DNA of 16,143 bases, from the IMG/VR virus record IMGVR_UViG_2660238511_000011. One strand, given 5' to 3'. The notes under the pieces were generated by a model. That model saw only the letters and a program-made list of their open reading frames with translations, did no database searches and was not told where the DNA came from. Positions 10,385 through 10,615 of the stretch are shown here, in pieces. Numbering within the stretch: the stretch's first letter is position 1; each line of letters begins with the position of its first letter. The translations under genes were made by a program, and so were the position numbers. The DNA comes from a virus (Duplodnaviria > Heunggongvirae > Uroviricota > Caudoviricetes).

Positions 10385-10615
10385 CCCTTGTCTACCTTAT
10401 CTACCTTAGTGGCCCTCATGCCAGTAATGGCGCTGCTTTCAGCGGGGTAGAGTGCTTTTATCCACTATCTACCCCGTGTCTACCTCCCTGTCTGATTCAG
10501 GTAAAATCAGGTAGAGAGGGTAGATAGTGGGTAGACAGTAAAAAAAGGCTATCTACCTAACTTAATGCACTGAATTAAATGTATTTTTCTTTACTCAGGT
10601 AGACAGGGTAGACAG
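10385..10615. repeat. Replication origin candidate: iteron array (core GGTAGA / TCTACC, 11 copies in both orientations) with an AT-rich tract
   Basis: TCTACC at 10391, 10400, 10468, 10479 and 10552. GGTAGA at 10446, 10510, 10519, 10530, 10599 and 10607. Extended units such as GGTAGACAG occur. An AT-rich stretch lies at about 10536-10600. The array is immediately downstream of the primase-helicase gene. Confidence 0.7.

Follow-up and report, generated by a model that had tools for sequence, protein, structure and literature searches.

Replication of the phage-inducible chromosomal island (PICI) EcCICFT073 has been studied with a segment cloned as "ori", and plasmid maintenance needed both this segment and the pri gene (Fillol-Salom et al. 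2018, PMC6092414). With pri-ori on a thermosensitive plasmid, colonies grew at the restrictive temperature. Significantly fewer were obtained from pri-delta-ori and delta-pri-ori, and loss of ori reduced their number without abolishing them (PMC6092414). In SaPI origins, 6-12 short iterons of 5-6 nt directly follow rep on its 3' side, and an AT-rich region lies between oppositely oriented iterons. The C-terminal winged helix of SaPI Rep binds these iterons, the origin is melted without ATP and the helicase loads itself; two hexamers have been proposed to load, flanking the AT tract (PMC9371898). In phage P4, according to the record annotation, crr, a helper that acts in cis and is not the start site, lies directly 3' of the alpha gene and is built of two related modules in direct repeat, and ori lies 4.5 kb from the gene. 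Judged from its sequence, the array described here is a replication origin of the EcCICFT073 type, already known and experimentally supported through an orthologue, and it belongs to a common island.

Results

A mirror-symmetric repeat array next to rep

The window (the whole 16,143-base stretch that was analysed) carries an island with genes for an integrase, capsid, protease, portal and large terminase; all of its large ORFs are on the minus strand, and no tail genes were found among the window ORFs. The element is inserted between phoQ and roxA, as is EcCICFT073, and by its gene make-up it is a capsid-forming phage-inducible chromosomal island. Runs of N at 4561-4684 and 5640-5661 fall inside the packaging module, so that ORF calls there (e.g. 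4517-5047) are unreliable.

Thirteen exact GGTAGA/TCTACC hexamers are present in the window, where dinucleotide-preserving shuffles give 3.43 on average and at most 9. Eleven of them lie at 10391-10612, and 0 of 200,000 random placements put 11 of 13 within 222 bp. This bears out the claim of an earlier note on this DNA that eleven such cores, in both orientations, occupy about 230 bp: five are in minus orientation (10391, 10400, 10468, 10479 and 10552) and six in plus orientation (10446, 10510, 10519, 10530, 10598 and 10607). Alignment of the eleven copies gave the extended consensus R-GGTAGA-Y-A-G. The same note described the core as often extended, which is slightly generous, as the exact 9-mer GGTAGACAG occurs three times and GGTAGAYAG six times among the eleven. 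With a weight matrix made from the eleven copies, their own scores were 12.0-16.5 bits and the best score elsewhere in the window was 8.0 bits; there is thus a single iteron cluster in the window, and a second cluster, as in a P4-like ori/crr pair, was sought by weight-matrix scan of the window and island and was not found.

The array occupies the 288-bp gap (10341-10628) between the Rep stop codon and the start of a 92-aa ORF, both on the minus strand. The last extended repeat, which reaches 10615, is 13 nt away from the Rep stop codon (10629-10631), and this places the array immediately 3' of the initiator gene, and the start codon of the next gene is 47 nt downstream of the array. Neighbouring repeats of the same orientation are spaced 9 or 11 bp apart, about one helical turn. 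Five inverted pairs (10391/10607, 10400/10598, 10446/10552, 10468/10530 and 10479/10519) are exactly mirror-symmetric about 10501.5, and one long hairpin is predicted for the array as single-stranded DNA (z = -5.6). The AT-rich stretch pointed out in the earlier note is real and is sited inside the array: 10558-10597 is 77.5% AT, compared with 48.9% for the window (99.8th percentile of 40-mers), and is bordered by TCTACC at 10552 and, in the opposite orientation, by GGTAGA at 10598 and 10607. Two P4-ori-like modules in head-to-head orientation make up the origin; one has a 40-bp, 78% AT spacer and the other a conserved 21-bp non-AT element. Features of the array and its surroundings are as follows.

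1-1461, plus strand: phoQ
2553-4214, minus strand: large terminase
5940-7151, minus strand: portal
7153-7725, minus strand: prohead protease
8095-8970, minus strand: HK97-type capsid
10341..10372, minus strand: leader and ribosome-binding site of the next gene (ORF 10062-10340); 29/32 columns invariant
10391..10396, minus orientation: iteron 1, core TCTACC on the plus strand; outer pair of distal module B; invariant in 10/10 variants
10400..10405, minus orientation: iteron 2, 9 bp from iteron 1
10422..10442, no strand: conserved non-AT element CAGTAATGGCGC(T/G)GCTTTCAG, within the 40-bp spacer of module B
10446..10451, plus orientation: iteron 3, inverted singleton of module B
10468..10473, minus orientation: iteron 4
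10479..10484, minus orientation: iteron 5, 11 bp from iteron 4
10485..10509, no strand: dyad symmetry centre (axis 10501.5), with degenerate repeat-like sequence on both sides; inverted repeats; single-stranded DNA fold z = -5.6
10510..10515, plus orientation: iteron 6, first of the triple of Rep-proximal module A
10519..10524, plus orientation: iteron 7
10530..10535, plus orientation: iteron 8; an inverted copy instead in one E. coli subgroup
10552..10557, minus orientation: iteron 9, inverted singleton of module A
10558..10597, no strand: 40-bp AT-rich spacer, candidate DNA-unwinding element; 77.5% AT
10598..10603, plus orientation: iteron 10
10607..10612, plus orientation: iteron 11; extended repeat ends 13 nt from the Rep stop codon
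10629..12377, minus strand: Rep, 582 aa; Toprim-like N-terminal domain, D5_N, SF3 helicase (DUF5906), Pox_D5 origin-binding domain
10647..10922, minus strand: Rep residues 486-577, winged-helix origin-binding domain homologous to that of P4 alpha; putative iteron reader
11976..12377, minus strand: Rep residues 1-134, Toprim-like fold without zinc ribbon and without conserved DxD motif
14914-16143, minus strand: tyrosine integrase

A structured RNA was also considered and rejected. For five variants the covariation term from RNAalifold was +1.36 and lent no support, and the paired changes fall in the repeat flanks, where they are equally expected of inverted protein-binding sites. A scan of 9900-10900 against Rfam at E <= 1 returned only sub-threshold microRNA-hairpin matches, caused by the palindrome. 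A search of the array region for host-factor sites found no IHF consensus and no GATC. One DnaA-box-like site, TTATCCACT (10458-10466, 8/9 to consensus), lies between iterons 3 and 4; it is confined to the subgroup of the window and CFT073 and is not conserved in the other variants.

The initiator is a helicase with an origin-binding domain

Pfam domains D5_N, DUF5906 (SF3 helicase) and Pox_D5 were found in Rep. Its helicase part matches the 'DNA primase' chain of PDB 7OLA (E = 5e-15), which we take to be the SaPI5 primase-helicase entry, and residues 486-577 match PDB 1KA8, the origin-binding winged helix of P4 alpha (E = 7e-7). Identity to P4 alpha is 39.6% over residues 141-578 and 29-31% for the binding domain alone.

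The earlier note called this neighbour a primase-helicase. Rep is a helicase and origin-binding protein in which no primase domain is detectable, so that 'primase-helicase' is a database label only: neither Zn_Ribbon_Prim nor Toprim was matched in Pfam even at E = 10, and the same search was positive for zinc ribbon and Toprim in P4 alpha and in the Morganella protein described below. Structure prediction, done on database homologues, confidently modelled the N-terminal domain as a Toprim-like fold in which the catalytic DxD is not conserved. In these models the domain is probably a degenerate Toprim remnant and probably not an active primase.

Rep is mosaic among the E. coli islands. When the window was compared with loci L001-L009, the first ~140 residues were found in at least three alleles, 43-68% identical to that of the window, and these alleles assort independently of the helicase and binding domains, which are nearly invariant. 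The N-terminal domain also occurs in database fragments annotated as AAA_25 or RepA-type helicase (P0043, P0052 and P0056), and may therefore be a mobile module.

The array corresponds to the tested EcCICFT073 origin

The gap in CFT073 is 95.1% identical to that of the window, Rep there is 91% identical and the phoQ/roxA insertion site is the same; that island is EcCICFT073. All eleven GGTAGA cores are present at the same positions, and about 14 of the 288 positions differ between the window and the tested segment, none of them in a repeat core. The two islands differ in their packaging genes: EcCICFT073 has a capsid and decoration-protein module, whereas the window island has its own capsid, protease, portal and large terminase. 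They differ too in the first 140 residues of Rep, which are another allele in EcCICFT073. Beyond the origin, CFT073-type islands (L001/L002) have a small ORF followed by a gene for a single-stranded-DNA-binding protein; where this gene stands in those islands, the window (9760-10340) has a 101-aa ORF (phrog_27268).

To place the published inserts, the primers were mapped. The delta-ori insert ends at 9284-9304 of the CFT073-type locus L002, equivalent to 10625-10645 of the window, and the pri-ori insert reaches ~8978 of L002, 21 nt inside the next ORF. These positions make the tested "ori" (L002 8978-9283) equivalent to ~10319-10624 of the window. The published delta-pri primer includes the last two repeats. 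Cloning the array with its neighbouring gene and assaying maintenance, the check proposed in the earlier note, has in effect been published for this orthologue: pri-ori was maintained, and pri-delta-ori and delta-pri-ori were not, or much less (PMC6092414). That note had read the array as an iteron-type origin beside the initiator gene; position, repeat type, AT spacer and linkage all fit, and a 95%-identical orthologue has been tested (PMC6092414).

Conservation and spread among E. coli islands

A scan of the genome collection with the single Rep protein gave only three loci, and E. coli genomes together with phage records supplied a broader sample. The alignment of the gap comprised ten E. 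coli versions with identities of 72-99%. Invariant columns made up 54 of 66 (82%) in the repeat cores, 9 of 104 (9%) at other array positions and 13 of 40 (32%) in the AT spacer; comparison of the cores with the non-core array columns and AT spacer together (22/144 invariant) gave a Fisher p of 9e-21, calculated on sequences that are related to one another. The AT spacer was 66-82% AT in all ten variants despite diverging sequence, and its length was 38-40 bp in nine; it was 50 bp in the tenth (L007), which has one mutated iteron core.

The 21-bp non-AT element CAGTAATGGCGCGGCTTTCAG (10422-10442) occupies the place that the AT tract has in the other module, and 17 of its 21 columns are invariant among E. 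coli variants in which the spacer around it has diverged. Hairpins in this element were not significant (z = -2.2 and -1.4), it had no promoter match, and no counterpart was found in the Serratia or Klebsiella origins.

All 12 sampled E. coli islands that carry this rep gene have the array, which answers the concern that it might be absent from related islands with the same gene. Reps of these islands share 80-98% identity, and their C-terminal domain hardly varies. Among 5,426 complete E. coli genomes, 564 contain the 288-bp gap (at least 80% of it matched in 425) and 575 contain the 3' end of rep, a number near that of genomes with the origin; 132 complete genomes hold at least 80% of the island. 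At least four different packaging modules are found in combination with the rep-ori cassette, which occurs at different chromosomal insertion sites; it therefore travels with rep, not with packaging or integration.

Two further observations concern variation within these islands. Residues 541-545 of Rep (window ~10743-10757) divide the E. coli islands into two groups, NVNDFG versus NVAEFS, and the same two groups are separated by the 3' flank of the iterons, GGTAGAYAG versus GGTAGA-G/T-R-G. This match could be simple linkage, because the binding-domain residues and the flanks are less than 150 bp apart. In E. coli CI5 (L017, NZ_CP011018, 1060-1440), GGTAGA repeats form the two modules in reverse order, ~90 bp apart, and the reversal marks the ~100-bp module as the unit of rearrangement.

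The module layout is shared with distant relatives and with P4

More distant Reps are followed by repeats of another sequence:

Serratia aquatilis: Rep identity 53%; repeat after rep ACTGTTCAC
Morganella morganii: Rep identity 52%; repeat after rep TGTTCAT
Klebsiella capsid-forming island (deposited as phage vB_KppS-Ant): Rep identity 41%; repeat after rep TGTTCACC

Repeats of the TGTTCA type are found in Serratia, Morganella, the Klebsiella island and phage P4. The layout read from the Rep stop codon is nevertheless common to the window, Serratia and Klebsiella: two repeats, a spacer of ~40 bp rich in AT, one inverted repeat and three repeats, continuing with two inverted, one direct, a spacer of ~40 bp and two inverted. 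Offsets of the repeats are 0, 9, 55, 77, 88, 97, 128, 139, 161, 207 and 216 in the window and 0, 10, 51, 74, 85, 93, 124, 136, 169, 211 and 219 in Klebsiella. In Morganella the proximal module agrees, and the distal part consists of direct, not inverted, copies. Equivalents of the AT spacer are present in Serratia, Morganella, the Klebsiella island and P4 ori.

P4 ori (9310-9413 in X51522) is one module of two iterons, an AT spacer of ~40 bp, one inverted iteron and three iterons, with offsets of 0, 10, 54, 75, 86 and 96; the proximal offsets of the window are within 1-2 bp of these. Since P4 ori is one module and the CI5 modules are reversed in order, the functional unit seems to be a module of ~100 bp. 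The initiators are also homologous, including the origin-binding domain, and P4 crr holds the same place directly 3' of the gene as the window array. The two systems differ in four respects. The type I iteron of P4 is TGTTCACC and that of the window is GGTAGA; ori and crr are 4.5 kb apart in P4, whereas the window has one compact locus; the two modules are direct in P4 and inverted in the window; and alpha has a zinc ribbon and an active Toprim primase, both of which window Rep lacks.

Mutual identity of the binding domain is 56-83% among GGTAGA users (window, L016 and CI5) and 45-50% among TGTTCA users (P4, Serratia, Morganella and Klebsiella), compared with 28-38% between the two groups. In the helicase domain, in contrast, the window is closest to Serratia (69%). 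In these comparisons, which cover two clades only, similarity of the origin-binding domain tracks repeat type and not the helicase tree. No iteron array was found after rep of Pasteurella phage Pmp8 (L015, 4265-4700), whose Rep is 32% identical, and the layout is therefore not universal at that distance; the Pmp8 origin, if there is one, must presumably lie elsewhere.

Comparison with other origin classes

The array has the principle of repeats with an AT-rich element in common with theta plasmids. In pSC101, R6K, RK2, F and P1, initiator-binding repeats lie beside an AT-rich unwinding element. These plasmid iterons are 17-22 bp long and mostly direct, and initiators of the RepA type recruit host DnaA and DnaB. 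The window repeats, by contrast, are 6-10 bp long and in both orientations, the initiator is itself the helicase, unlike those of the RepA, pi and TrfA class, and the conserved DnaA boxes of the plasmids are absent from the window origin. The core origins of SV40 large T antigen and papillomavirus E1 combine an SF3 helicase that has its own origin-binding domain with a repeat dyad and a flanking AT tract. The working would be the same (a short-repeat dyad, an AT tract and two expected rings), but this is analogy only: neither the binding domains nor the repeats are homologous to those of the window.

The likeness to SaPI1, SaPIbov1 and SaPI5 is closer in layout, as the window has eleven short iterons 3' of rep with an AT region between opposite iterons, and in protein, window Rep being, like SaPI Rep/PriRep, an SF3 helicase with a C-terminal winged helix. 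The SaPI iterons, however, have no sequence similarity to those of the window, and SaPIs encode a separate or fused primase, none being detectable in window Rep. The window array also differs in being a near-perfect dyad of 230 bp with the AT tract in one half only.

Discussion

We put at about 0.88 the probability that the array is the replication origin of an EcCICFT073-type PICI, with iterons read by Rep, melting of the AT spacer and a self-loading helicase. After induction and excision of the island, the C-terminal winged helix of Rep would recognise the eleven RGGTAGAYAG repeats. The evidence for this recognition is indirect: the cores are selectively conserved, and the clades of the binding domain correspond to the iteron types. 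Bound Rep would then form SF3 helicase rings, and the AT spacer at 10558-10597 would melt. The rings would load themselves without a separate loader, probably two of them facing opposite ways, as the dyad layout suggests. As Rep has no detectable primase domain, priming would most likely fall to the primase of the host. No terminator-like site was detected between Rep and the next ORF, and for this reason the origin is probably transcribed with the operon.

The second module and its 21-bp element might be a built-in equivalent of crr or a recruitment site for host priming, the locus being a compact fusion of two P4-ori-type modules in which the Rep primase was lost and the degenerate Toprim fold kept; we regard this as a rather unlikely, speculative extension.

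It is also conceivable that the array is a crr-like replication enhancer or copy-number site, acting by Rep looping or handcuffing, and that the true start is elsewhere in the island. The iteron block directly 3' of alpha in P4 is annotated as crr, with initiation at ori 4.5 kb away, and the published delta-ori plasmid was reduced and not dead (PMC6092414). However, the weight-matrix scan of the island gave no second iteron cluster, the Rep-proximal half has the exact 2-AT-1-3 layout of P4 ori, and the orthologous pri-ori fragment alone was enough for plasmid maintenance (PMC6092414). With no second cluster, and with the orthologous fragment sufficing by itself, a helper of this kind is improbable.

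A reading of the repeats as operators for transcriptional control of the downstream morphogenesis genes by Rep or another regulator of the island, and not primarily as an origin, appears more improbable still. Plasmid iterons often double in autoregulation, and the array, which precedes the start codon of the next gene by 47 nt, adjoins the conserved leader of that gene. Yet a scan for promoters found none facing the downstream gene, neither a sigma-70-like promoter in that direction nor a terminator being present, and the sole match was weak, on the plus strand and at chance frequency. Moreover, islands that have the array in common differ in their downstream genes, replication is conferred by the orthologous fragment (PMC6092414), and the same layout occurs in P4 ori, which is no promoter for packaging genes. 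A secondary regulatory role of the array is possible.

A packaging signal (cos or pac) for the island's own terminase, some such site having to exist as the island encodes a large terminase, has next to no likelihood here, since the identical array occurs with unrelated packaging modules (the CFT073-type capsid and decoration protein, the protease-capsid fusion type and small-terminase types), always adjoining rep, and we know of no cos or pac site in the form of short inverted iterons around an AT tract.

As a replication origin the array is an ordinary feature, because an E. coli origin with 95% identity to it has been through laboratory tests. What the comparison adds is modest: an architecture of two modules in common with P4 ori, a conserved element of 21 bp and an initiator in which the primase is missing. 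The E. coli initiator is probably reliant on a primase encoded elsewhere, and the second module and 21-bp element, if they did recruit host priming, would offset the primase that Rep has lost. Origins of satellite islands and of P4 share one type of module of ~100 bp, whose geometry is kept while the repeat sequence and the binding domain of the protein change together. Capsid-forming islands and about one in ten complete E. coli genomes have, almost unaltered, the replication cassette known from a well-studied E. coli satellite island, and this shared cassette is useful for annotating and delimiting such islands.
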